From Eukaryota sp. GEM-RC1 (Eukaryota), in NCBI GenBank assembly GCA_040285855.1, contig JAUFOQ010000002.1, forward strand, positions 2,294,001 to 2,358,000: a stretch of DNA of 64,000 bases, written 5' to 3'. Position numbers and translations under genes: made by a program. The notes under the pieces are model-generated. The model worked only from the letters and a program-made list of their open reading frames with translations, had not been told where the DNA came from and searched no databases. Below are positions 36,269 to 62,850 of this stretch, in pieces (position 1 is the first letter of the stretch; each line of letters starts with the position of its first letter).

Positions 36269-37225
36269 TTAATTTCTACGACCTCTTTTCCTAGGACCTC
36301 CTCTACCCTTACGGTTCTTCCTCAAAGCAGCCTTCTTTTCCTTTGCTTCTATATAAAACATAGCCTCATCAGCACCAGTTAAAACAACCAACTCAGGAGT
36401 CTGACCTCCAATCTTAATCGAATCTTCCTGTAACTTATCAGCTACCTTCTGAGCTACTTTCTCCTCTGCCACGTCACTGAATCTAATCTTTGCACTGGGT
36501 TCTCCCTGAGAATAGGCAACGTACCCAACGGTAGCAAAAGGAGACAGAAGTTCTGTGAGGATCTCCCGTGTGCAGGTAGCTGGAAGGTTCTTGATCTCTA
36601 GTAGACAACCTTCCACAAACTCAACACCTTCGTCCTCTTCCTCGTCTTCTAAAGACTTCTTGTCAGTCTTGGCATCTTGCTTGGCTTCCCTACGCTTGGA
36701 GGTGCGTTGTTCTCTTTGCTCAGCCTTGCGTTTGAAGTAGTCGGGAGCATACTCAGTTTTGGCTTCGAAATCAAGTTCTTGGTCTAGGAAAGACTTAGCC
36801 TCTTCAACGGTAGAGAACTCAACAATGGCGGAATCGTACTTTTGGGTATGGAAGTTACGGCGAAGTCTGACACATTGAATGGTTCCGTACTTTGACAGGA
36901 GTTCTTCGACTGATTCGATGGTACTGTCTTCAGGAACTGGCTTGACGCGGACAGATCGTTCTTCTGACGTGTCTTTTTCAGGGAGTGGAGCGACACGTCG
37001 GACTTTGGTTTTGTCTTCAGAAAGTGCAACAACAGTGGAGTCTTTGAGTTGTTCAGCTAATTCAGGAGTGGTGAGGTTGAAGCTCTTCATGCGGTTGAAG
37101 CTGTTGATGACATCAAGTGAAATCCAGCCTTCAGGGGTTTGTTTCGCAGTACTGAGAAGAAACTTGTCTTTAAGATAGTTGGAGTCACTAAAGTAGAACT
37201 CTACTTGTTGAAGGGCAGTTTTCAT
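36269..37225 (-). CDS. SSB: La autoantigen (La motif, RRM, xRRM)
   Basis: QVEFYFSDSNYLKDKFL, FNRMK, two RRM-like domains and a basic tail. Confidence 0.92.
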   Translation of the reverse strand: MKTALQQVEFYFSDSNYLKDKFLLSTAKQTPEGWISLDVINSFNRMKSFNLTTPELAEQLKDSTVVALSEDKTKVRRVAPLPEKDTSEERSVRVKPVPEDSTIESVEELLSKYGTIQCVRLRRNFHTQKYDSAIVEFSTVEEAKSFLDQELDFEAKTEYAPDYFKRKAEQREQRTSKRREAKQDAKTDKKSLEDEEEDEGVEFVEGCLLEIKNLPATCTREILTELLSPFATVGYVAYSQGEPSAKIRFSDVAEEKVAQKVADKLQEDSIKIGGQTPELVVLTGADEAMFYIEAKEKKAALRKNRKGRGGPRKRGRRN

Positions 37226-37513
37226 AGGAGAGAGGAAATTAAAAAAAAGACTCCTTGTTCCCTTTTCCACAGCTTTCCTATCATACATTCATACGAAACT
37301 ATTAATAGTAACCGCAGAATATCTTCGCTAAAAAATAAAAATCACTTGTAGAGACGAAAATGATTTACCTTCTAAGTATACGATTCTTTTGACAATACCA
37401 GGAATATGTAGTTTTTTTGTTCAAGTTCTATTTATTGACAACAACACTACGGTGTACGTACATCTAATAATCAATATCCTCAAAGTCCAAATTGTCTACT
37501 TGGACATTCTTAC

Positions 37514-38420
37514 CTACCATATCCTCATAATGGCTGTTAAGTGATAATAAAATTTCAGATCCAGAAGACACCATACCTTTAATGATAGCAAACGCAATTC
37601 GATTTTTCCAAAATCTAAGATCAAAAGTCCTAGATGTTTTTCTTTTACAATCTTCACAAAGAATTCAAGTAATGATGTTTTGGATTCACCTAAAGACCCG
37701 CACAGTGAAAGAACAAAAGGGTACAACAAAGAATTGGAGTGTGAAACCGAATTCAATTATTTCAGTTTATCACCAATTTTCCATTTTAAATTTTTCACTA
37801 ATCAACAGAGAATTTTAAACATAAGATGTAGATAGTTTCTTGTTAAAATCATTTCAAACATCGATAGACAGAACATCATCAATAATGAAAGATCCAACGA
37901 GACCAGGAAATATCACATCACCACGGCTATTTCCAAACGATTTGTCAACATCCGTATCATCAAACAAACCAGCCAGAACTGGTTTTAAAAGGAAACTATT
38001 CCATAAGATTTACACATATAATATAATTGATCCCTTACTGGGTCATGAACCCTACTTCTAAAAAGAAATAAGACGGTTACAATTCAATAACGGTTAAAAT
38101 CTTTATTTAAAGTGGTTTCGACTACAGAAATTTGTGAAACCAAGTGTTGAAAGACAGTCATCTTGATGATGTCTTGATTTAGATGGTTTAGCCTTATTTT
38201 TCATCAATTTCTGGACAAACGTGACTGTCGTACGGATATTTATTGACTATGGCACTGGTTTATAAACCGTGAAGACAGCTGTGCAATATTTTTCAAATCA
38301 GATGCCTCACTATCTACCAGCTTTTAAAATGGAACAAGATTCGTTGTCATTTTGGAGGTCCTCTGGTTTGTGGAATTGGAAATCATTGAAGAGATTCTTT
38401 TCAAAAGATCGAAGCAACTG
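37514..38420 (-). mobile_element. 3' remnant of an RLE-type (CRE-like) non-LTR retrotransposon
   Basis: RGDVIFPGLVGSFIIDDVLSID (restriction-like endonuclease core) and YPFVLSLCGSLGE; many stops. Confidence 0.6.
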
Positions 38421-38423
38421 TGG

Positions 38424-38577
38424 ACACGGGACCTTTTTCGAACACGGGGCAACATAGAACAAGACCCAAGTAAGAGCAGAAAGTCTCCTAAACAAGAGAC
38501 TTCTCTAAGAGGGGAGATTGTCTATGATTGCTCAGATAACTACGGATTCACGTAGTAAATAAAGGCTATGACTATGA
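38424..38577 (-). ncRNA. Candidate Fanzor omegaRNA scaffold (locus A)
   Basis: Immediately 3' of the Fanzor stop; hairpins actacg-tgaatc-cgtagt and aagtctctt-gttt-aggagactt; ends near aaaggtcccgtgt. Confidence 0.55.
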
Positions 38578-40724
38578 CTATGACAAATAACTGGGTCTAA
38601 CTCCTAGACCCCGCTCTAAATGATGCTCCACAATGGTCTTGATGTTGATACACGCTAACTTGTTACGATTCCAAACTTTGTCTTTGTCATCACATTCTTC
38701 TCTGCACTTCTCAGATTGACATCTCAACAACGCATGTAACTTCACCGTAGGCTTCTTTTCTTGTGTCTTGGGTCTAGGATTGTCAACTTCCATAAACACT
38801 TTAACTGGCCCCAAACAAGTAGGACACTTTGAAGATGTGTAACTCTCGTCTACCAAAACAATATTGTAACCATTTCTCCTAAAGAAGTTTCTCCACATCA
38901 CACCTCTACTTGATCGGAGATGTTTTAGGTTCTGCCTCTTATTACCATTGTCACCAAACATCAATACACAGTCATCTTTATTCCATCCTTTTGCAGTCAT
39001 ATTTTTCAACAACTTACTTTCTATTTTTTGAATATGGACGTATCTTTGCATTTTTGAATGCGCCATATCATCAAACAGTAGTAATCAAATGTTGATTCAA
39101 TAACTGTAAGTTTGGAACTCACATAGTCATAGAAGGTTTCATACACGGTCGACTTTGAATTTTCTTTGGACAATGTTGACTCTTCTTGTTCAACCGTTTT
39201 TTCATCTCGGAGAATAAATTCTTTTTTCTTTTCCCTTCTAAACTTTTGATGGACTCTGGACAATCTCGACCATTCTGTTTCTGTCAATCTTAGCCACTCG
39301 TATTCTTTGTTTCTCATTTCACGGGCTAAATTTTCAGGCTTTCTTATTTTTTCTGAACAGAAGTAGAGTAAATCCTTCTTGCCAGGATCAATGTACACTT
39401 TTGTTTTCAATGTAAACTCTTCAATATCATAGTCTTGAACATATTCATCAGTACTGGAGAACTTTTGTACTATCTGGTTTAAAGGACATTCCCACACAGT
39501 CCTCTCTAGTAAGTTCAATACAAACAGAGAAACCATCAGTTTTAATGGTATTGTTAAACTTATAACCTTTCTTTATAAATGGACGATTAAAATTGACAAA
39601 GTAAGACCAGAATTGATTTTGCTCAGCAGGAGACATGTGTCTAATTTCAGTTTGTGTATTCCACTCAGATCTGATTTTTTTCTCTTTAACCTGATGATTG
39701 GTTAATGTGGAACGTAATATTCCCCAAAGACCTTGTGTATCCACTTCAAAGAAGCCTGGAACCACGTGTCGAACAATCGGAATTATATTGTAAGTACTGG
39801 CTTCATCCTCTTCAAGAAAGTTATTTATCTGTATTGCTGATTTTAGAAAAGATTGTGGATGTTCATGTACCGCTTTAAGTAGAGAATCAATCTGTTTGTC
39901 TTCATAATCACCATTTGACTTTTGAATTTTAATTGATGGTGGGAAGAGGATATCAATGCAAACCTGATCTGAAAATAGTTCTAGAACAGTGTCGTGACTT
40001 TGAGCTAAAAGTTCAATTTTATCTTCTCTACTTAAGCTTTTTCATTGTCATCTTCAAGAATTATGGTATCACATTGTTCAATAAACTCTTGTATTTCTTC
40101 AGTAGTTTTTGGAATATCATTTCTATTCCTTTGAAGAAAAACATTTTTTATTTGTCTCAATCTCCAACGAAATACAGACTTTTCTTTTCTGGACATTTCT
40201 TCTTCAACACTATTTTTTTCAAACCAAACATTAATAAATTTGTCAATGTACTGCGGATATCGCATCTTAATGTTTGTGTTCAAATTTGTTTGTATTGTTT
40301 CACCAACCATTGCCATAAGTCGTGGAGAATGGTTAGCTGGAAATTGTGGAATACCACCATTGTCAATCATAACTTGTTTGTATTGATTTGTATCAAATTT
40401 TCTCAAGTCGTCATTAATTGTCGCATTTCCATTGTTTAGTTTAATCTTATGACGATCAGCAGAGATTTTTTTCAGCAACGTTTGAATGTGTTCAACCTCT
40501 TTCCTTGTAATTAATGGTAGTGGAAGCTCATTCTTATTTAAATACAATAAAAACAGCTTTAAACAATAAGAAGTGTGTATTCGTAGTTTATGAACCAATA
40601 GAGCATAAAAATTCAACAACAATTCCAGTCCTGTGTGTTTTGCAATAGACTTCAGTGTAGTCTTATGTGTGACAAAAGTGGAACGAACTATTTTATTTGA
40701 TTGAAATAATAAAAACAACTTCAA
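38578..40724 (-). CDS. Fanzor (TnpB-derived RNA-guided RuvC nuclease), C-terminal part of a polyprotein; three A-run frameshifts
   Basis: FVTHKTTLKSI N-terminus, FNNTIKTDGFSVC, RuvC-I IDPGKKDLL, VLMFGD, RuvC-II VDESYTSSKCPTC, zinc finger LLRCQSEKC, RuvC-III WNRN(D>N)KLACINI and RPSYL tail. Confidence 0.9.
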
Positions 40725-41440
40725 TGCTAGTACACTGTCTTTGAAACATTAGTTTAGAACTTCTTGAGGTCGTCTACTAACACAATCAATAGGCAATAAG
40801 TGTTCAAATTTGTCATGAAGACGTCCTTTAGATTCATTTAATAAAAACCAACTTAAAGATCTTAATGATCTTGAACATTTGATAGCAATAAATTGTTTAG
40901 CATAGAGGTAAGAATCACATACAGCTCTACCAGCCCATTCAGTACAAACACGTTGCCATAAAGGTGACAAATGTGATTTTGTGGTATCATCTAGCATTGG
41001 TTCTGGAAAGTCTATTCCAAAAGCATCAATTCTATTGTCTAGAACAACATTATGAAAATTAGTAATGTTAAATCCAGTCAAAACAGACGGATTTTTATCA
41101 GTCAAATAGTTGACAAAAAACTCTAGTAACTGTTTTTCATCTTCAAAGAAGAAAAGGCTATGGCAATCAGTTGGATTTTCAACCTCTGAAAAGACAGTTG
41201 ATTCTTCTGAAGTCGCAACAAAGCTTTCTTGGAGGTAAAACTCATCCTTAATAAAATGACCGAACACTCCAGAAATCATGAACACTTGTTGTTTTTCAAT
41301 CCAAGCATCTCTTTTTGAATCACTTTGATTTTTTTAAAACATCATTATGTTCTTGTCTTTGATCATTCAAATTCTTCGTAAGTTTCTCCGCAGGTAATTG
41401 ATCAACTTCTCTTGTTTCAATATCAAACGACAAAATTGAA
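40725..41440 (-). CDS. B-family DNA polymerase-type 3'-5' exonuclease domain, in frame with Fanzor
   Basis: ExoI SFDIET, EKQLLEFF, ExoII GFNITNFH, GRAVCDSY, SLRSLS and ExoIII VLN*CFKD (TAA where YCxxD has Tyr). No polymerase domain follows. Confidence 0.82.
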
Positions 41441-41877
41441 CAAGAGTTAGAGTCTTCTGGTAATTCGGAATTACAATGAAAGTCAATCATTTGTTTCTTA
41501 GGAGGTTTAAGACTCTTGGTAGCATGAGTTTTACCACTTGCTTTTGGTTTGGTTGTAGACTTTTTGGATTTGCCAACTTTTGTTGTACTCTTAGCTGGTG
41601 TCTTTGTGGTTTCGGTTTTCTCACAAGCAGCAACGTTTATTTTAGGAGTTGTCAAATTTATTGGAGCTAAAGTCTCTAACTTTGGACGAATCAAAGATTC
41701 CTGAAACAATTCTTCAGCTTCTTGAAGTGCTTGTTGTATCATGTGCAACTTCAAACGACGTCTCTTTTGTCGGTTAGACAAATCACCTGGTAAACTATTT
41801 AGAAATTCTTTATGAGTCACATTTGGAACCCCTATATCAGAATCACTGGGCTTACGTATAATCCTTTTTGACTTTTT

Positions 41878-42645
41878 TTAAGCAACTTTGTCAGTTTTTT
41901 TATATTTGCGTGTTCGCTTAATTTTGGTTTGTCCAGATATCCGGTTTCTACTTGTAGGAGGTTGTAGAGATTGAAGGTACACTTTTATTTCTTGTCTACT
42001 CTCCCTAGTATTGATAGGTTGTTGAATCATTCTATCAGCAGCATGGAGAAGAGATTGATCTGTGAATTGGTTTGAAGTCAGAAGTTCAATAAGTCCTCGC
42101 ATAAACTGAAGAACATATACTCCACAATCATTTGTTGTTTGTTTCTGTAGCACTGGAACAATAATGAGCTGAAACTGGAGTTGATGAAGAATTTCATGTA
42201 TTTTTGAAATATCTTGATTCAAATAAGAGTCAATTTCATTTAAATTTTTATCAACATCCTGTCTGTGAATTTCAGCATCATAAAGAGGATCGAGAAATAT
42301 CACTTGTAGATCATTTTTATCAATTACAATCAAACCCCAATGTAAACCAGTCATTGCATCATTTATTGGAAGAAAAAGATATCTAGAATCTGTCGCAAGC
42401 ATCTTGTTCATGAAAAACTCGTGGAGAGATTGAGTTTCATCAACTAAATATGATTGAATAGATTCAGGAGTTACAAAGGCATTGAAATCAATTTTGTATA
42501 CGTCCATCAAATGACGAGAGTACCAATTGACACATTCTTCTGCAATCGATTCTTCAGCTGACAACGATTTGATTGCTTCTGAAACCTCTTGTAATTGAGT
42601 TTTTGTCAGTTTGTTAGGATCTGGAATTTCATCAGTAGATGACAT
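41878..42645 (-). CDS. ULP1/SENP-like (C48) cysteine protease domain 2
   Basis: FLPIN...HWGLIVID...FLDPL...QTTNDCGVYVL (His, Asp, Gln and Cys all present). Confidence 0.88.
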   Translation of the reverse strand: MSSTDEIPDPNKLTKTQLQEVSEAIKSLSAEESIAEECVNWYSRHLMDVYKIDFNAFVTPESIQSYLVDETQSLHEFFMNKMLATDSRYLFLPINDAMTGLHWGLIVIDKNDLQVIFLDPLYDAEIHRQDVDKNLNEIDSYLNQDISKIHEILHQLQFQLIIVPVLQKQTTNDCGVYVLQFMRGLIELLTSNQFTDQSLLHAADRMIQQPINTRESRQEIKVYLQSLQPPTSRNRISGQTKIKRTRKYKKTDKVA

Positions 42646-42676
42646 CAGTGTAGAAGGTTCAGATAAATCAGAAGTA

Positions 42677-43549
42677 TTAGCAGTCTTCTATCTTTTTTTT
42701 GGCCGGTTGTTTAGTTTTAGGACCTTTTTTCTTTCTTGCATCTGGTTTTTTGGGTTTATGACGTTGTTGAAAAGGTGTAGAATGAACTGAAAAGTATTTG
42801 TTTAAGATTTGTCTAGCACGTTCAGCCCTCTCTGCTGATTGAGTAGTCAAAATATGAGTCAAAACTTCTTTCCTCATTTTTAGAGCATCATAGTCTTGGC
42901 TTATTACGAGTCTGGTTAAAATTTCTTTAAAATCGATAGATGAACAATCGATAGATGAGTCTGTTAAGGTAACAAACTTTTTAATGTACATAAGAATAAA
43001 AGGTCCACAATCGTTTTCAGTTTGCTCTTGCTTTACAAATAGTTTATCCCGATACACAAATTTCGCATCATTAAACAAATTTAACTGTAACCGTTGGACA
43101 ACTTTTTAACTACGAGTTAACCGTTTTTGAGCCCGGAATTGTTCTAAGTCTTCTAAGTGTTGTTGCTCAGTAAACAGTGAGTCAATTGAATAAATCAGTC
43201 GGTCTTTAATATCACAAACTAGAATTGTCCAATGAGTTGGAATTCCACCAAAGAGACCATCATTTACTGGCATGAATATAAATCGTTTCGCAGGAACACC
43301 TTCTTTCATTGTTGTGATAAGATAATTGAATTTCCTTAGTAACAGCTGATAGTGGAAGACTGCTATTGCCCCAAGCATATCATTAATTGGGAAATATTGA
43401 CAACAATGACTACTTTGAGTAAGGAAATCACCGTATAAGCCAATTACATCATCATTAATCCATACTTTGGGCTTTAAAGTGTCGATGTTGTCCCAAGCAG
43501 GAGCAGGAACAGGTCTCAGTTGCTCATCTCTAAGGTCATCTGTAAGAGA
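42677..43549 (-). CDS. ULP1/SENP-like (C48) cysteine protease domain 1 (one in-frame TAA at 43106)
   Basis: WINDDVI, FMPVN..HWTILVCD..IDSL and QTENDCGPFIL. Confidence 0.88.
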
Positions 43550-43594
43550 AGGTCCTGGATTGGACTCTATGTCTCCATCCGTGGTTAAATCATG
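43550..43594 (-). other. 2A-like ribosome-skipping (StopGo) peptide HDLTTDGDIESNPG/P
   Basis: Exact match to the D(V/I)ExNPGP consensus with a typical upstream DLT..GD context. Confidence 0.9.
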
Positions 43595-43642
43595 AACAAA
43601 CTGTGATGACTGTTGATTAAAATGACTGTTGAGAAATGACGA

Positions 43643-43883
43643 GTGATAGTGCGAGTAACTTAATCCTGTTACTATCACCCGAAACACCTTGTGGTGTTTG
43701 AGTACAGAGAATCCTAATGAATTAGAAGAAAAACATACAGAGTGATAGTGCAAGTAACTTAATCCTGTTACTATCACCCGAAACACTTTGCAGTGTTTGG
43801 AGAGCATCAAATAAGAAGAAAAAGGTGATAGTGCGAGTAACTGAATCCTGTTACCATCACCCGAAACACTTTGCAGTGTTTGG
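43643..43883 (-). repeat. Three copies of an about 58-nt two-hairpin RNA-like element in the polyprotein 5' region
   Basis: Copies at 43643-43700, 43742-43800 and 43825-43883; compensatory base changes in the stems. Confidence 0.85.
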
Positions 43884-43929
43884 AAGCGAAAAAGGGAATG
43901 AAAAAGATACAGGTCAAAAAGATTTCAAC

Positions 43930-44097: not shown

Positions 44098-44200
44098 TCA
44101 ACATTTGTAATGACAATACTTGTAGATACAACATTTGTTATGACAATATTGGTAGATACAACATTTGTAATGACAATATTTGTAGATACAACATTTGTAG
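44098..44200. repeat. 30-bp tandem repeat (about 3.5 copies; caacatttgtaatgacaatatttgtagata)
   Basis: Directly visible in the sequence. Confidence 0.9.
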
Positions 44201-44213
44201 GGATAGACTATAT

Positions 44214-44671
44214 CAGTGTTTGAAAACCACCCGGGTGGAAATGAAAACCACCCGGGTGGCACTCGGTTCCACCCACCACCCGGGTGGCGTCTGGGTGGTA
44301 CTGGGTGGATAATTTTGGTCATACCATCATCTTCAATCCATGACTTCCTGAATACATACTTCGATGTTCAACGTGTCCTGAATACAATTATTTTAACGGG
44401 AGTTATTTCTAGGCTCGGATAGGCTAATATCATCTTATTTATTTATTTTTCAGAGGGTTGTTTTAATCCCAACCCTGTACAAAGTTCTTCATTGTTAGTT
44501 ATTTTATATCACACACTGCTAAAGTACTTTAATTTTCATCGTATATGGTGTATAAAGTAGTTTTTGCACCAAAACTTATGTCTCGTTCTTTAATGCCGGT
44601 GGAAATGAAAACCACCCGGACGCCACCCGGTTCCACCCACCACCCGGGTGGCGTCCGGGTGGAAAATTTTC
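44214..44671. mobile_element. hAT-type MITE (458 bp) with palindromic ccacccgggtgg subterminal repeats
   Basis: Perfect 8-bp TSD gactatat (44206-44213 and 44672-44679); left end cagtgtttgaaaa; right TIR truncated to ttttc. Confidence 0.75.
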
Positions 44672-44887: not shown

Positions 44888-45131
44888 ATGCAGATCTTCG
44901 TTAAAACTCTCACCGGCAAAACCATCAATCATCAATGTTAAAGTCGAAGGAGCTACTGATACCATTGAATCGGTCAAGGAAAAAATCCAAGATCAGGAAG
45001 GAATCCCACCTAGACAGCAAGTGTTGAGCTTTGAGGATCAGAAACTTGAAGATGATCGTACTCTACAGGACTACAACATTCAGGAAGAGTCTACCCTTTT
45101 TCTTGTCCTCCGTCTCCGAGGTCGTATCTAA
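44888..45131 (+). pseudogene. Divergent ubiquitin-like gene disrupted by a 7-bp duplication
   Basis: [13 protein letters not shown]...EGIPP...[22 protein letters not shown]; catcaat duplicated at 44923-44936; no C-terminal GG. Confidence 0.85.
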
Positions 45132-45316: not shown

Positions 45317-46367
45317 ATGCTTACTGAAAAGAAGTCCGCAATCTTACTCGTCGTCTTGCTGATACTGAAAAGCCTATCCGTGACGCTGCTTTCGATGAGC
45401 TTAAGTCAGTACTTGCTCATGAAGATCTCACTGATATCGACTTGAAACGAGTTTCATTAGGTCTTTTTTATGATATCTGGCACTCAGACAAACCCCTAGT
45501 CCAGAACAGTCTCTGTGAATCAATTGCATCCTTTGTAACATCCCTACAACCATCAAAGTCCAACAAGTTCTTCTCTGTCTTTCTTCCCATTCTTGGTAAG
45601 GAATGGGGTGGTATTGATCAGTACCGTTTAGACAAGTACATGTATCTCATTAGACTTTTCATTCGGGGAGCATTAGAACAGTCTATTGTTTCTGATGATA
45701 CTGCTGAACTCTTTGGAGAGACTCTAACCGCCCTACTGTCGGATGAATCTGTCATTCCGTTTGGTTTTCAATGTCATGTTTGCGATGTATTTCCAGAAGA
45801 AGTTGAGACAGTATTCAAGACGTCTCCAAATCCCAACACGTGTCTTCCTTTCCTCTACTGTTTTGTTATCTGTCTGTCAAAGTGTAAGAACAAGTTGCTT
45901 CGAACCGAGTATGGACAGTGTTTGAATGGTGTTGTATCGTTTTTATTTAACTTAATGGATGAAGAGGAAGCAAATGAAGAAGCTGTTGTGTTATCAATGT
46001 CTTTGTCTGAAATTCTGTTTTATTACGCATCATCAGTAACTGAAGTTGTTGGTCCTGCTAGAAAGATCATGTATGACGTTGCAGATCGCATTGGTAAGAA
46101 ACTTGACATTCCCTTAGGATCTCTTTCAAAGCTTGATGGAAATGCCAACGGAGAAGAGGAGGAGGAAGAACCTTTTCCGAAGGCGAGCTAAGTGGTAGTG
46201 ACAGTGATGAAGAAGAGAGTCAGGATGAAGGCAGTCAAGATGATGAAGGGGAAGAGGAAAGCAGTTCTGAAGAGGAGGGATCGTTGTTACTTCTAGCAAA
46301 TGTAGAGAAACTAAGGAGGACTAGTACAAAGTCATCGAATATACCTAAAAAGAAGCGAAAGCAATAA
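45317..46367 (+). CDS. RRP1: rRNA processing protein RRP1/NOP52 (indels near both ends)
   Basis: GLFYDIWHSDKPLVQ and EWGGIDQYRLDKYMYLIR; acidic/basic tail. Confidence 0.88.
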
Positions 46368-55178: not shown

Positions 55179-55208
55179 TACTGTTTGAGTACTTCTTAAT
55201 TAAAATTA

Positions 55209-55990
55209 TTGTTAGTCGATATTTCAGTTTCTGATTCTGGTGTTAAACAAGGAGATCTTCTTGGCCCCTTCTTTGTTTGTTTGGCTATTCATCCCACCCT
55301 GAAAAAACTCAAAAAAGGACATGCAGACTTAGAAATTGTAGCTTATATGGATGGCATTTCTTTTATTGTTCCTATGTCAACTCTTCGTACTAATGCGAAT
55401 CACGCTGCTGATTTGCACGATGCAATTGGACTTCATTTAAATGTGCAAAAATGTTTTTTGATTGCCAAGGTACCTGTAACTTTAATTGTAAATTCTTTAG
55501 AGGTTCCCTTTGTGAACTACTTGTCTTCAAGCTTTAGATTTCTAGGTTGCTATCCTGGTTCACATGAAAACATTGTTAAAAATCTGAAAGTATATTCGGA
55601 TTCAAAAGCTCTATTTGCTCTCAGTGTTTTTTATGAAGAAAAAGGTTATGTAAGTTAAAATGGCAATGATTGTTGCTTTAATGATATTGAGTTCTAGTAT
55701 TTTTGTTTATCTTAGTGTTTTTGTTCCATAAATTACTCGTGGAAAAAAAACATGTTTTAGTTAATCTTCCACAGATGCTAACAACGTTTGGTGAAAGATG
55801 TTCTTTTTTATCAAGATTATATAAAAATCAAGATTGCGGATGTTCATTTTCTGCTAGAGATTGTCAGTGCACCACGGTTTTCCCATCATGGATCCTGTAA
55901 TCTGTTACTTATATCATCATCTTAGTTTTGGCGATTTTCAACTGTTATCATAAATTTGACAAACACTTAAATATTTGTAGTTTTGTCAGA
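55209..55990 (+). mobile_element. Non-LTR retrotransposon RT fragment
   Basis: SGVKQGDLLGPFF, AYMDG (YxDD decayed), GLHLNVQKC and FRFLG. Confidence 0.8.
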
Positions 55991-56633: not shown

Positions 56634-58465
56634 CTAACGTTCAGGTCTTCTGAACGCTTCAGGTCTAATCCCGAAGAAGAATTCGCTGATTGCGATCTCT
56701 AGTTGGTTTCGAGATGCTGAGATGTCTCGCGACCATTCTTGCAAACAAAGAGGACATGTGAACTTGGAATTGTTCACTCTCCTCTCGCCATTCACCATGT
56801 GATACAATTTTTGGTGGACAACCTTACAGCAGTTCACCTTTTTTGAAGTATAAAACTCGTCTCCCATCACCACATTGTGCGATCTTTGTAGATAAGTCAA
56901 GAATCGCTTTCTAGGCGCTTTGACCTTTTGTCTTGATGGTCCATCTCCGCCTTTGCCAAACCAGATGCTAATTGTCCGGCCATCAGCTATAGTATTGATT
57001 ATCTGGTGTAATAAATCGAATCTTTTTTGTCGTCTTATATAGAAGTCGAAATTATTTCGTCGTAAAGATCGTCTGTTTCCTTCAATAAACCGTCTTTGTA
57101 GTATAGTTTTGCTCATCTGGGCATCCACAACGTGAGAAGCTAATTCGATGAGATACAGTTTAAAGTTCTCAACGATACAAGTATTCGCTGTTGTGTGAGT
57201 GAGAGCAGGGGCATGGTTAATTTTTTTCGGTTTTGGGGACAAACAAATCCCAGAGGCTTCAACTGGGCCATTAAGTGAACCCACCGACCAACCACACAGA
57301 TTGCTGTGGTTGGGGTCAATAGCCCAAAATAAAACACTTTCATCCAGAAGTGGTAGTACTTCAGACACCTCAGATTTCTTCTTCTTCTTAGGAGGAGGAC
57401 GGACAACCTTACTTTGAAGGTTCTTCTTCCTTTTTCTTGTCTTTGAAGGCCGTTGAGCAGGTTTCTCCACCAGCTCCAACTCGGCCTTTGTTCGCCTCTT
57501 TTAGTCTTTTTTAGGCTTCATTGAGAAAGTGAATCTCAATGAGACTCCATCAGAGGAAATTGTATAAGTCTCAAATTTCTTCTTTCTAAAAACATCATGC
57601 GGATTTTTTAATAAAACCTTTCGAGTATTATAATTTTGGAAATGTTTTTGAGTAGCCTGGCTGAAGGGAAGAAAGCCAGGTGAATAAGATGCCATGGGCG
57701 TAAGAGCCTGCCGACGCATTCTGGTGGGTTCAACCCTCTCCAAGTGGAGGAGAAGATTAAATGGAACTTCAAAGATGAAGTTGACATTGGACGGAGTTAA
57801 GTCAGTCATTGGAGTGGTCAAAAGGGCATCCACTCGTTCTGGGTCCATAACTTGATTGTTGAAGATGTCAACAATCTGGTGGTGCCAAGTGGTCCACCAA
57901 GGAAGAAGAGATTGCGGTGGCTCAGAGCCACGTAGAACAAGAGAAGCGTACTGCTTTGGAGAGGGACAAAGACAGTAGGTAGCTGTGGTTCGAAAGAAGT
58001 TAAGCTTCCAACTAACCAAGCCATCCGTCATCAGCTGCTGAAAGGCAGCTGCAAGCTGAAGTGCTCTTGCACTAAATAGGTCCGAGTATGCCCAGTTGAT
58101 GGGACACCTCCGTTCCTTGCATGGGGGTTTGTCCCGGCCAATAGGAGGGAACGGCCAGCCTGGACGGTCTGTAGAATTTAAAAGAGCATTGAACACCTCA
58201 GTGTGCTCACAAAAGGTTCCCGTACTGGCATCGTCGGGGAGGACGGATCCAGACAAACAAAGTCAAAACACTGGTACCAGTACTGCTGTTCAGTCAGCCA
58301 GTACGCCAAGTGTTTGTGCTGGAGCACGAACAGTCGAGCAAGGAGGGTGCTCTGGACAGCAACTGTTCTGACGTGGCGGAACTGCCGCTCCATGGCTTTT
58401 TGAGCTGGCACTCCGAAGAAACGGGAAATAGATGACGCGACAGTGGTTTTTTTGTCGACAGTCAT
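56634..58465 (-). CDS. Fanzor nuclease B (one frameshift near 58255, one in-frame TAA at 57501)
   Basis: TISSDGVSL, RuvC-I WAIDPN, WFG, RuvC-II GDEFYTSKKVNCC, zinc finger CPLC, RuvC-III WSRDISASRN and RPEAF tail; D-E-D triad intact. Confidence 0.88.
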
Positions 58466-58773: not shown

Positions 58774-61221
58774 TAGTGTTGCACGAGACGTGTAATTTAC
58801 TGGCCGAGACGCGTCTCGGAGACGTGCGTCTCCTGAGACGTTTCCGAGACGTGTTTTTTGGTGTTTACATCTTTTTACTTTCCACACAACATCTCCCTCC
58901 TCTTTTCTCCCATTTATATGACTGCACCAGGCATCAACTTAAGAGATTTTGTAACAGTTATTGTTGACGTTGAATCTGATGAAGCAGCAACTCGTCCTAC
59001 GTCTCCAAGTGGTCGTCTCAAAGATCCACAGGTCCGTTGTAACTCATGCCATCATATCTTTTCTGAATCCACTTCGCGGTTGAAAGCTCACTTCCATATT
59101 TCTGGAAGTGGAGTCAAATTATGCACAGCACTGCCTCCTGAACTTTCCGAAAGACAACGTTTAGCTTTATCGCAATCAACCCCACCAAAGAAAAAAGACC
59201 GCCAAACAAGCCTTTTTGAAAATTGGGACTCTCAAAGCAAAAAGTTCCTAGACCTGGTGATAGCCAATTTCTTCTATCGTCATGGCATTTCCTTTAATGT
59301 GGCTCGGTCTCCCGAGTTTGTCGATATGGTAAGCGCTTTGGTCTCATACAACTCTAAAATATCGTATACTCCTCCTTCTTACAATTCTCTTCGCACCTCA
59401 CTCTTGTCTGAGGTGAAGAATGTTATCAACTCTCGATTATCTACTTTTTTTCGAAATATAAGAACCACTGGATGTACAGTAGTTCTTGACTGCTGGAAAG
59501 ATGTCAGAGGGCGATCCCTAGTTAATTTCTTGTTCGTTTCCCCTGATGGAGCCGTTTTCGAGAAGGCTGTTAATTTACATGGCAAATCTAAAACTGCCCT
59601 TCTAATAGAACAGGAACTTTCGAAGGTGATCCGAGACCGAGGTTCCGACAACTTCACTCAAATAGTCAGTGATAGGGGTTCAGAAATGAATGGATGTCAA
59701 CGCGTCATATCTAAGTTCCAGGCGATCACTTGGACTCCCTGTTACTCGCATACGCTTGACCTTTTCTTGGAAGATTTGGATGATTTGGATATTATCGCTG
59801 ACGTCAATGAAATTACAGGAAAAATTGTCAGTTTCATTAAAAACCAAGAACAAGTTAATGCAATTTTTTTACGGTTATCTGATGGCTGTGAACTACTTAA
59901 ACCCACAATGACCCGGTTCGCCACCAATTTTATTCAACTTGGAAGGTTGCTGAAAGTGAAACAGGCTGTCAGGATGTTGTTGATCAATGGTGATTATGAG
60001 CGTTGGAAAAATCGTCAAAAGACTCGCAAAAAGAAAGACCATATTGCATTGTTCGAAAGTTTTATCACTGATGGTCGCTTTTGGGACCAAGCAAAAGAAA
60101 TACACGATTTTTGTTTGCCTTTTGTTGAACTTCTAAACGAAGTTAATTCGGACACCCCTGTAATGGGTTCTATGTTTCGTCGTTTTACAGAGACATACAA
60201 GAAGATTTTCTCCACTGAGCTGCAATTTCTTGAACAATATAGAATAACCATAGCGGAATTATTTCTCGATCGGTGGAACATTGTCAAGAACCATCTGCAT
60301 TTCTCTGCCCATTTACTGGACCCCAAAAATCAAGACTTCGATCCACTAAATGAAGATATGCAATCGCTGAGAAATTCTGTCGTTACAACATTAAAGAAGC
60401 TTTTATCTCCCGAAGACGCAAAGGCTGCTTTCAAGCAATTATGCCATTATCGAACAAAGAAAGGAAGTTTTGCTGATCCGCTAGTCTGGGAAGCTGCTGT
60501 AACAATGGAGGGAAATGAATGGTGGGATGTGTTTGGCGGTGATACACCTCAGTTAACCAAAGTTGCTATCAAGGTCTTAAGCTGTGTAGTTACAGCAGCT
60601 GCAAGTGAGAGATGTTGGAGTGTTTACTCCTATATTATCAACCGGAGAAGGAATCGAATGACACCAGAGAGACAAAATGATCTTGTATATGTCTTCATGA
60701 ATCTTCAACTGCTGAAGAAACAAAGATCCTTTGCCGTGAACTACTATACGGAAGATTATCCCCAACTTAGTAACTTGCTGTCTAATATTGTGGAGGAGGA
60801 GGATCAAGAATGTCTTATGAGAGAAGCTATAGACGAGATAGTGGAAGAAATGGAAGAAGAAGACATTGTTGTTATTGAAGACCAAGACAATGACCTAGCC
60901 GTTAGTGAAAACGGAAGTGGTGGTGAACAAATGGTATTTGACCCTCTTCTTGAAGGTCTTGAAATGCAATTCTAAATTTATTTGTCTGTAATGCATCCAA
61001 AGGTGCTCATCCACCGTTTTGTTAGTTTTTAATTCAGTTTTTGATGAGTTTCTGAATAAATCTATTTGTTTTAACTTGTACTGATGTCATTATTACGTTT
61101 GTTAAAACAGGTATCAATGTTAGAAGACAGAGACGGGGAGACGTCTCTGAGACGTAATGTTGTAGAGACGGGAGACGGAGACGCGGACGTCTCGGGAGAC
61201 AAGAGACGTCTCGTGCAACAC
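58774..61221 (+). mobile_element. Autonomous-looking hAT DNA transposon
   Basis: 15-bp TIR gtgttgcacgagacg (58776-58790) / cgtctcgtgcaacac (61207-61221); many gagacg subterminal repeats at both ends. Confidence 0.92.
58918..60975 (+). CDS. hAT transposase (BED finger, DUF659-type DDE core, dimerisation domain)
   Basis: CNSC..H BED finger, LDCWKD, VSDRGS, CYSH, TRF, WWDVFG...AASERCWS; uninterrupted ORF. Confidence 0.95.
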   Translation: MTAPGINLRDFVTVIVDVESDEAATRPTSPSGRLKDPQVRCNSCHHIFSESTSRLKAHFHISGSGVKLCTALPPELSERQRLALSQSTPPKKKDRQTSLFENWDSQSKKFLDLVIANFFYRHGISFNVARSPEFVDMVSALVSYNSKISYTPPSYNSLRTSLLSEVKNVINSRLSTFFRNIRTTGCTVVLDCWKDVRGRSLVNFLFVSPDGAVFEKAVNLHGKSKTALLIEQELSKVIRDRGSDNFTQIVSDRGSEMNGCQRVISKFQAITWTPCYSHTLDLFLEDLDDLDIIADVNEITGKIVSFIKNQEQVNAIFLRLSDGCELLKPTMTRFATNFIQLGRLLKVKQAVRMLLINGDYERWKNRQKTRKKKDHIALFESFITDGRFWDQAKEIHDFCLPFVELLNEVNSDTPVMGSMFRRFTETYKKIFSTELQFLEQYRITIAELFLDRWNIVKNHLHFSAHLLDPKNQDFDPLNEDMQSLRNSVVTTLKKLLSPEDAKAAFKQLCHYRTKKGSFADPLVWEAAVTMEGNEWWDVFGGDTPQLTKVAIKVLSCVVTAAASERCWSVYSYIINRRRNRMTPERQNDLVYVFMNLQLLKKQRSFAVNYYTEDYPQLSNLLSNIVEEEDQECLMREAIDEIVEEMEEEDIVVIEDQDNDLAVSENGSGGEQMVFDPLLEGLEMQF

Positions 61222-62850
61222 ATAATATGACTTCTATAACAAAAAAGAATGGCAAGCTTTGACTGTTTATCTCTTTCTTCCAACACTTATATATCCCAAA
61301 TTTATCACCATCACTAAACAATCTTCACAAGAACTGCCCGCAACAACACAGGTCTTCAATTGTTGTCAGATTGGCTTGCTGCCACCTCTCCCTTAATAAT
61401 CCTTCTTCCGCACAACATGTACTGGATCCGTTACTTCGGTGATTTGTTGTGAATACCAGATCCATAGGACTTCATCCCATCAGTTCTCTGGTCTTTGATC
61501 ATGACGAATTCCTCGACGGACAAGAGGACGTACTGATCCATGAAGAAGAAGAGGAGCTCCTTGACAGTGTTCTAAAGTTGTCCCTTGTTGATGGTCTTGA
61601 AATGGAAGACCTTCTTATGAACATCTCCCCCTGATGATGTCTGTAACTGCTGGTTTTGAAGTTGTAGCCTTTCCCCGTTCCTATATTGGTGCTTTCAGGT
61701 CCGTCCTTGACCTTTCTCGCTCTTATATCGCCCTCTCCGTTAACACTAGTTCTCTCCTTCTCTCATCCATCCATTTAGCAGATATGTGAGAGATTATTGG
61801 TATTTGCTGATGATTGAGTGTTTAGCAATATTTTTCCTCAATCCCACCACTTAAATTTGGACGAAGATTACCCGTAGTGGTACATCCGTGCCATCTTCAA
61901 TTCATCACAATAGTCATAGTTTGTTGGTTTATTTATCATAAAAAGCTAGTTACCAAACCAGTAGTATCTCCCTCTACTCGTCAATAATATTTGATTGTTT
62001 TGATTGATTGGCGAGTGAAGAAAGATTTTATATAAAATAACTTGGTCACTTCTCGGTTGTTTCAATGTTAGTTATTGAACAACTTATGTTTATTTCTAAA
62101 AAAAAAATTAAGATTATATTCAAGCAATATCTTCAAAAATAACTGGAATGACTCGACAAACACATGATATACATCATAGAGGCTCTGGAAATACTCTAGA
62201 GAAACACTGGACTCAAAATCTCGTTTAATTCTCTTGTTTAATTAATTCTGTCAAGAGATTCCTGTGGAGTCACATCAAGGAATATAATGCTGTTTCTCTT
62301 TCTCATAAAATTAGCCATGTTGTTAAACAAGCGGAGATAGGTTTCGCAGCCATGTTATTCCAAGAGTCCTGAGTCTGAGAGCATTTTGGCAAAGACGGAG
62401 TCCTTATAGATTGTTCAGTCTCTAATGGAACCACTGATGGAGCCGAAAGATGCCGAACTGAACGCCAGAAGTGGTCATGGCGAATAAAAATCTGTTGAAT
62501 CATGTTTCTCGCCTTCTTTCGCAAAACTATGAAAAGAAGAATCAGAGATTCACGAAAAGTTCAGACGTGAAAGTAAGATAAGAACTTCACCGGATCAGAT
62601 ACGCCTTTATTGAGATGAACAGCAGAGTATGTTCTACGAAAAGGATTGAGACCGTCAGGTTCTAGATGAATGTTCCGTGTATGATATAGACATAACAGCA
62701 AAACCATAAGAGAGGATGAAAAACTGAAAAACAGAACGGGGAAAATAAATGTTGGGGAAAAGATAAATGGGAGGTTCTTGTACTAGTACTACTAGTAGTA
62801 GTTTAATCCAAAACGAAATCCCCAGTAGATTCTTCCCCTTACATATTATT

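Follow-up and report, generated by a model that had tools for sequence, protein, structure and literature searches.

The window analysed here is a stretch of 64,000 nucleotides from Eukaryota sp. GEM-RC1 (GenBank assembly GCA_040285855.1, contig JAUFOQ010000002.1, positions 2,294,001 to 2,358,000 of the forward strand); its host is a gene-dense eukaryote whose long genes are read through by the standard code. Between a La gene and a Nop52 gene (Table 1) nine minus-strand open reading frame (ORF) pieces, from 43924 to 38578, make up a polyprotein gene in which a predicted 2A-type motif, two Peptidase_C48 proteases and a PolB-type 3'-5' exonuclease are followed by an RNA-guided nuclease of the Fanzor1 type. 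A preliminary description of this DNA had joined the pieces into one frame of about 1,740 codons with indels in A-runs at the joins, and both statements hold: the span 43807-38578 comprises 5,230 nt, or about 1,743 codons, and all five frameshifts recognised by comparison with relatives (near 42695, 41333, 40040, 39465 and 39053) sit in A-runs. It had also counted three in-frame TAA codons (43108-43106, 41880-41878 and 40751-40749), all of which are present, but had overlooked a fourth in-frame stop, TAG 42690-42688, which comes on top of the indel needed near 42695. The TAG faces Lys in the relatives P0051 and P0053. The three TAA codons face Glu, Gln and Tyr, and because these residues differ the codons are nonsense mutations and not a recoded stop; TAA as a sense codon is ruled out by the same residues together with host genes that are long under the standard code. 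Four nonsense changes and an ExoII D>H change private to this copy are impossible as homopolymer errors, and the copy is therefore dead at any assembly quality. Judged from its sequence, the locus is the dead remnant of a mobile element that exists in multiple copies. The earlier suspicion of decay was thus right as regards the ExoII change, but not as regards RuvC-III D>N, which is family-wide. As had been stated, no transposase, Rep or reverse transcriptase (RT) is encoded within the copy. A large viral or Polinton-like insert is ruled out by the La and Nop52 genes lying within about 1.4 kb on either side.

The architecture recurs in relatives. With the Fanzor N-terminal piece as the query among longer proteins, seven relatives were found in 1,244 candidates, named Eukaryota sp. 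GEM-RC1 (71-96% identical) and TZLM3-RCL (36-49% identical); identity to the nearest of the named relatives is 90-96%. These strain names are those of skoliomonad metamonads from soda lakes, whose assemblies are based on nanopore reads with short-read correction and carry automatic gene models (bioRxiv 2023.05.03.539051). The relatives fall into clusters of between 1 and 14 members, scattered over many contigs and two named species; within a lineage the copies are 95-98% identical and hence young. Further members came from 1.84 billion representatives searched with a profile. Across the 78 family proteins the 2A-protease join is spanned by 7, the protease-protease join by 3, the join of protease to ExoI by 10 and that of ExoIII to the first Fanzor strand by 33. 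All exonuclease and RuvC motifs stand in one chain in 10 of the 78, and the RuvC-I D, the RuvC-II E and the zinc finger are retained in the 10 complete proteins. P0053, of 956 amino acids (aa), spans 2A to ExoII and matches the window from 43621 to 40905 at 77-94% identity; P0012 (1,571 aa) reaches from a degenerate 2A across a single protease and the exonuclease to the C-terminus of an entire Fanzor; and P0006, P0037, P0044, P0035 and P0046 each span 2A, exonuclease and Fanzor. A chimeric assembly or nested unrelated insertions might be suspected from the nine breaks of this copy, five of them in A-runs, and from the nanopore assemblies and automatic gene models behind the relatives, but for each junction there are 2 to 33 proteins that run across it, from two named species and many contigs, and identical joins recur across lineages only about 30% identical, so that this explanation is largely refuted and to us barely credible. 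On this comparison of sequences the exonuclease-Fanzor fusion is almost certainly real, and the single polyprotein gene proposed earlier has every junction spanned by relatives. Its domains are also confirmed, the proteases and the exonuclease by Pfam and the Fanzor1 by structure searches. None of the 187 stretches of metagenome contigs that matched a protein pattern was confirmed as a relative, the leader-repeat pattern gave none either, and among viral contigs 0 of 193 pattern matches were confirmed.

Table 1. Features of the polyprotein locus and of its surroundings (positions in the window).
Feature	Position	Strand	Basis
La gene	36269-37288		
Expected omegaRNA scaffold and right end	38420..38577	-	position only
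Fanzor1 (WED-REC-RuvC-zinc finger); frameshifts near 40040, 39465, 39053	38578..40699	-	
PolB-type 3'-5' exonuclease	40700..41433	-	Pfam, motifs; fold by a relative's model
Basic low-complexity linker with short conserved helix S-x-R-x-K-R-R; TAA 41880-41878	41434..41999	-	
CE-clan (Peptidase_C48) protease 2, approximate bounds, His/Cys motifs intact	42000..42600	-	Pfam
CE-clan (Peptidase_C48) protease 1, approximate bounds, TAA 43108-43106 inside	42860..43480	-	Pfam and relatives
2A-type ribosome-skipping motif GDIESNPG/P, predicted	43550..43591	-	motif, relatives
Leader with the polyprotein frame open and an ATG (43807) in that frame	43592..43924	-	ORF list and relatives
Three 60-nt leader repeats	43825-43884, 43742-43801, 43643-43702	-	repeat family D2
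Tandem array	44099-44200		
hAT-like piece (458 bp)	44214-44671		
Ubiquitin-like gene	44888-45131	+	PF00240
Nop52 gene	45328-46191		
RT fragment	55200-55658	+	RVT_1
Second TnpB/Fanzor-like gene	56634-58262	-	RuvC-III motif, TNB domain
hAT element	58774-61223	+	ORF, domains, terminal repeats

Modules ahead of the Fanzor

The exonuclease is recognised in the window copy by DNA_pol_B_exo1 (Pfam E 7.6e-15) and by an intact ExoI (SFDIET), while ExoII carries the D>H change seen in this copy alone and not in relatives, the Tyr of ExoIII is replaced by TAA 40751-40749 and a frameshift falls near 41333. Thus the hallmarks of PF03104 (ExoI DxE, ExoII NxxxFD, ExoIII YxxxD and the fold) are present in relatives and broken here. 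At least nine exonuclease lineages, mutually 17-73% identical, could be distinguished; all nine representatives compared retain the ExoI D-x-E and the ExoII D, and the eight that extend to ExoIII retain its D as well. The ExoIII motif passes into the first strand of the Fanzor without a change of frame and with no interruption other than TAA 40749, much as first described, and 33 of the 78 family proteins have the same join; the pattern for it matched 10 of 11 proteins, and in these its length does not change. Residues 1-246 of a structure model built for the relative P0003 (pLDDT 86.5, pTM 0.74) align to PolB exonucleases (Pol delta, epsilon and alpha, African swine fever virus, herpesvirus and RB69) with Z of about 16, the top Z-scores being tied between possible donor lineages. 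Many DEDD-type exonucleases are RNases, and the domain might act on RNA, trimming a read-through transcript to short-guide omegaRNA or turning over the element RNA, which we think decidedly improbable. By profile, model features and fold the domain matches the proofreading domains of family-B DNA polymerases, which act on DNA. The omegaRNA must indeed be excised from a longer 3' transcript (PMC13565253), but 126 relatives exist without an exonuclease domain.

The two proteases differ in their preservation. Copy 1 gives a Pfam E of 1.8e-4 for its His half and 0.021 for its Cys half, which P0051, P0052 and P0053 hold in a single chain, and copy 2 gives 1.7e-15, with the frameshift near 42695 and TAG 42690-42688 upstream of it. 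The catalytic His...Asp...Gln...Cys motifs of Ulp1/SENP (PF02902) are found, in P0053 as two stretches (E 8.5e-23). The solved structures matched are SENP8 (6e-11), SENP5 (2e-10) and SENP1/Ulp1 (about 2e-7); since the deneddylase SENP8 barely outscores SENP5, the label deSUMOylase is not established. The two ULP1 proteases of the preliminary description are both there, but as a property of this lineage: the number is zero in the P0006 group and P0084, one in P0012, P0029 and P0073, and two in the window copy and P0053. Moreover, the P0012 protease resembles that of P0073 (77-88 matches per 100 residues) and its exonuclease and Fanzor resemble those of P0029 (88-100). By these comparisons the proteases are variable cargo swapped between lineages, and 2A, exonuclease and Fanzor are the core. 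A search of 6,719 candidates for long proteins (1,130-3,225 aa) with these proteases returned none, which is weak evidence given the narrow length window. The predicted fold of the 2A-protease half is poor (pLDDT 42). Within the linker, at 41700-41800 on the minus strand, the basic helix S-x-R-x-K-R-R is followed by a P-T-P-K motif, both kept in several lineages amid variable sequence; the helix is possibly a nuclear localisation or nucleic-acid-binding element.

Upstream of the proteases, the 2A motif DLTTDGDIESNPGP (43591-43550) follows the pattern GD[V/I]ExNPGP as GDIESNPGP, and the motif or a variant of it occurs in 18 of 207 proteins, in 15 of them in canonical form. Such a motif is by itself insufficient for ribosome skipping and needs upstream context (PMC3708506). 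The leader ahead of it is built from repeats, each of which forms two hairpins on the sense strand (folding z -5.1, -4.6 and -3.1). All 51 stem cells pair, including one two-sided and three one-sided changes, but 169 of 500 shuffles do likewise, and this conservation is without significance because three repeat copies are too few. Rfam gave no match over the repeats, its sub-threshold matches lying elsewhere, and by eye they do not fit the motifs of hammerhead or hepatitis delta virus ribozymes. Of 2000 shuffles, 24 keep the first 94 leader codons free of stops, for a region picked after the fact. The leader peptide differs between lineages, the leaders ahead of 2A motifs being unrelated, and leader units are also repeated in P0035 (29 aa) and P0073 (27 aa). 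ATG 43807 is a candidate start and not an established one, because it sits within the leader repeats and the match to P0053, the closest 2A-bearing relative, begins only at 43621.

Fold, triad and clade of the Fanzor part

By fold and motifs, the former taken from the P0003 model, the nuclease of the element is a Fanzor1. In the window copy itself the TnpB zinc-finger domain (Cas12f1-like_TNB) has a Pfam E of 1.6e-4, under the curated cut-off, and the family profile matches SpuFz1 (1e-41), PpFz1 (1e-34) and GtFz1 (4e-8). Residues 248-940 of the P0003 model align to SpuFz1 with Z 27.2 over 567 residues at a root-mean-square deviation of 3.6 (Foldseek E 8e-29). The RuvC triad in the window reads DPGKKD / DESYTS / WNRN (D-E-N), with the rearranged RuvC-II glutamate just ahead of the zinc finger, DESYTSSKCPTC, in the same column as in 126 relatives; this rearrangement is a described Fanzor1 feature (PMC13565253, PMC10530073). 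The lineages with the exonuclease are set apart by a branch with 100/100 support (IQ-TREE, 27 rows) from the stand-alone Fanzor1s, of which 0 of 126 have the exonuclease domain, and the clade is also recovered by FastTree with 133 rows, after 32 fragments and near-copies were dropped; both trees are midpoint-rooted and leave out GtFz1.

The asparagine at RuvC-III is found in 24 of 24 family proteins having the motif, and D-E-N in all 10 complete relatives, whereas the 126 stand-alone Fanzor1 relatives have D in 120, N in 3 and a gap in 3. GtFz1 cuts DNA with a D-E-N triad, the change D606N makes SpuFz1 more active and the reverse change reduces the activity of GtFz1 (PMC11423790). Because N is found in 24 of 24 and GtFz1 is active with the same triad, D>N belongs to the family as a whole and is consistent with an active enzyme, and decay is ruled out as its explanation. 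The three stand-alone representatives with N (P0108, P0115 and P0120) are scattered, so that D-E-N probably arose several times, and GtFz1 probably gained its N independently of the fusion family. It could be argued that the RuvC is dead or nicking and that the Fanzor, like TldR or Cas12k, is an RNA-guided carrier for the exonuclease and proteases: the N is fixed, an additional N>L lies three residues further on, and the GEM-RC1-named copies share a frameshift ahead of RuvC-II. The retention of RuvC-I D, RuvC-II E and zinc finger in the complete proteins and the DNA cleavage by GtFz1 with the same WNRN speak against such a carrier, which we judge to be distinctly unlikely.

Mobility, ends and a proposed mechanism

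The mechanism that we propose, and for which our confidence is evenly balanced, is that of a single-gene exonuclease-Fanzor1 element which would cut empty sites and trim the 3' end, whereupon repair would restore the element by copying; transposition would be supplied in trans. Ribosomes would read the structured leader, whose peptide appears unconstrained, and 2A would free it and thereby define the start of the polyprotein. The Fanzor would bind an omegaRNA from the 3' end of the element, with flanking DNA as the guide, and would cut the empty allele about 14-21 nt past the target-adjacent motif (TAM), as do SpuFz1 (non-target strand 16-17 nt, target strand 20-21 nt past the TAM) and GtFz1 (14-17 nt; PMC10432273). 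The TAM-side fragment would be left with a 3'-ended tail of about 14-17 nt, and because this tail comes from the far side of the insertion point the junction can be restored only once it is gone. Removing short unpaired 3' ends is what proofreading exonucleases do. The exonuclease is attached to the first WED strand and would thus stand on the TAM side, where removal of the tail would block simple re-ligation and free the junction for homologous copying; in Fanzor, WED and REC clamp the TAM duplex. Cutting of element-free alleles by Fanzor and TnpB, followed by repair which restores the element, is known as restorative homing (PMC13565253). For moves to new sites a transposase would be supplied in trans, as has been suggested for the transposase-free Spu-1 elements (PMC10432273), and the proteases, as optional cargo, might remove SUMO, NEDD8 or ubiquitin from host factors that act in silencing or repair.

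Several observations weigh against this proposal. The named relatives come from automatic annotation of nanopore assemblies, in which breaks could be concealed by predicted introns. Three 2A motifs carry E>H, a change tied to very low activity (PMC3708506), and the P0006 group has Met instead of the ExoIII Tyr. All six GEM-RC1-named proteins reaching 39053 share the frameshift there, which cuts off RuvC-II/III; it falls (39051-39055) immediately ahead of an ATG that is in frame with the RuvC-II/III part, and 21 other proteins read through the site in frame. This shared frameshift may be an assembly error, the spread of a truncated lineage or recoding, and if real it would mean that the GEM-RC1 lineage spread without a working nuclease in cis. 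The placement of the exonuclease relative to the DNA is an assumption, the P0003 model carrying no inter-domain confidence. The region where the omegaRNA is expected is not more stably folded than its shuffled versions (z -0.93 across 201 nt, and -1.94 in the best window of 120 nt; one DNA copy), and Rfam gave no convincing match in this 3' region. Finally, comparison of the 3' and 5' zones of this copy gave no terminal inverted repeat (TIR) or convincing target-site duplication, the matches being at chance level (none of at least 9 nt, two of 8 nt, for one copy with unmapped ends), and since neither was found for the copy, an excising DNA transposon is an assumption.

There is also no room for a transposase or RT gene, because only about 290 bp separate the leader from the hAT-like piece and there is no ORF of 100 codons downstream of the gene. 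The hAT-like piece as the element's end is ruled out, as the piece is itself bounded by a direct repeat of 8 bp (copies at 44206 and 44672). It begins with CAGTGTTTG and has palindromic CCACCCGGGTGG subterminal repeats; its first 9 nt recur in two of the three Fanzor leader repeats, which may be chance. Between it and the leader lies the tandem array, with a 15/30-nt unit in 6.8 copies. The ubiquitin-like gene (E 1.9e-20), about 1 kb from the proteases of the element, has a frameshift by a 7-bp tandem duplication near 44923-44936, ends in LRLRGRI and not LRLRGG, and is likely a pseudogene. Further away, the apparently intact hAT element has a 712-codon ORF in which DUF659 and hAT dimerisation domains are recognised; its TIRs agree at 14 of 16 nt, and its subterminal repeats are rich in GAGAC. 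It is a possible source of transposase in trans. Head to head with it is the second, unrelated TnpB/Fanzor-like gene, which is about 20% identical to the fusion family and has the canonical RuvC-III aspartate (WSRD), a TNB domain (E 4e-7) and an in-frame stop (57501-57503).

A retro-type origin should also be considered, in which the 5' half (leader, 2A and Ulp1-like protease) came from a retrotransposon without long terminal repeats (non-LTR), the RNA was copied by an RT in trans, and Fanzor and exonuclease supplied the guided break and a trimmed 3'-OH primer. We regard this as unlikely. Ulp1 domains occur in NeSL/Utopia elements, no TIRs were found at this copy, 5' modules are exchanged on shared 3' modules, and elsewhere in the window there is an RT fragment (E 1.6e-6, under the cut-off) which looks non-LTR-like by its motifs. 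In cellular mobile elements, moreover, 2A has been reported at the N-termini of non-LTR ORFs, mostly in single-ORF elements (PMC3708506). On the other hand this copy has no RT, there is no RT-encoding ORF between the flanking La and Nop52 genes, the gene is not followed by poly(A), and no RT-bearing protein of the length range given above was found with these proteases, a weak argument. According to a 2026 review no known retrotransposon encodes Fanzor (PMC13565253), and a variable 5' with a constant 3' part is also seen in the unclassified Fanzor family MCi-2 (PMC3627910). A broader version, to which we likewise give little credence, is a transposase-less polyprotein that would make a guided break, trim its 3' end, disarm host ubiquitin-like signalling and copy itself in from a DNA or RNA template; if true, nature would have its own guided cut-trim-and-write element, and perhaps a first case of a Fanzor encoded by an element of the retro type.

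Comparison with known systems

The element has a Fanzor1, of predicted activity and with a predicted omegaRNA, in an architecture for which, as the preliminary description had supposed, we found no published description. The literature searched, with supplements, Repbase and most subscription journals outside the search, yielded no natural protein in which a Fanzor or TnpB is joined to an exonuclease or a protease, and the word exonuclease is absent from the main text of PMC13565253, PMC10711439, PMC10530073, PMC10432273, PMC10691335 and PMC3627910. Described Fanzors are stand-alone nucleases, whereas here a whole clade keeps a second nuclease fused at a fixed distance over deep divergence, which implies that the fate of the DNA ends after the guided cut matters to the element. 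The fusion makes it testable how Fanzor breaks turn into transposon gain in eukaryotes, and intact natural fusion proteins of 940-1,300 aa are already public; KAL0213088.1 and KAL0220299.1 are intact natural members of the family. It is a natural counterpart of engineered Cas-exonuclease fusions, TREX2-Cas9 reportedly being one of these.

The closest known system is SpuFz1/Spu-1 of Spizellomyces punctatus (PDB 8GKH, 9CEU-9CEZ), the best match in sequence and fold, which shares the rearranged RuvC-II, a single ORF, the lack of a transposase and many copies (PMC10432273), but SpuFz1 stands alone, with about 600-640 aa, a D-E-D triad and no exonuclease, protease or 2A, and its locus measures 2.1 kb and has inverted repeats of 30 nt. 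GtFz1 of Guillardia theta (PDB 9CER) shares the D-E-N triad with WNRN and loci without clear inverted repeats or transposase (PMC10432273), yet is further away in sequence and fold (Z 21.8) and has no fused enzymes; the clade-wide D-E-N widens this single structurally described case to a family. MCi-2 of Mucor circinelloides (Bao and Jurka, 2013) is likewise unclassified and without TIRs, with variable 5' modules on a shared 3' Fanzor, but it has target duplications of 11-12 bp, and exonuclease or protease are not named in the main text of that paper (PMC3627910). The 2A-bearing non-LTR retrotransposons (L1Tc, Ingi, CR1, L2 and Rex1) have the N-terminal GD[V/I]ExNPGP in a single long ORF (PMC3708506) but encode an APE endonuclease and RT, neither of which the fusion element has; as 2A is otherwise reported in such retrotransposons among cellular mobile elements, the motif hints at exchange between RNA and DNA elements. 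With SENP8/NEDP1, SENP/Ulp1 and the Ulp1 cargo of Ginger, Mutator and other transposons the proteases share the Peptidase_C48 His/Cys motifs, and the Atlas has C48 clusters with transposase domains; here, in contrast, zero to two copies are fused in frame to an RNA-guided nuclease. The proofreading domains of family-B DNA polymerases, lastly, share the ExoI, ExoII and ExoIII motifs and the fold of the exonuclease, but in the fusion the polymerase domain is missing and a Fanzor stands in its place.

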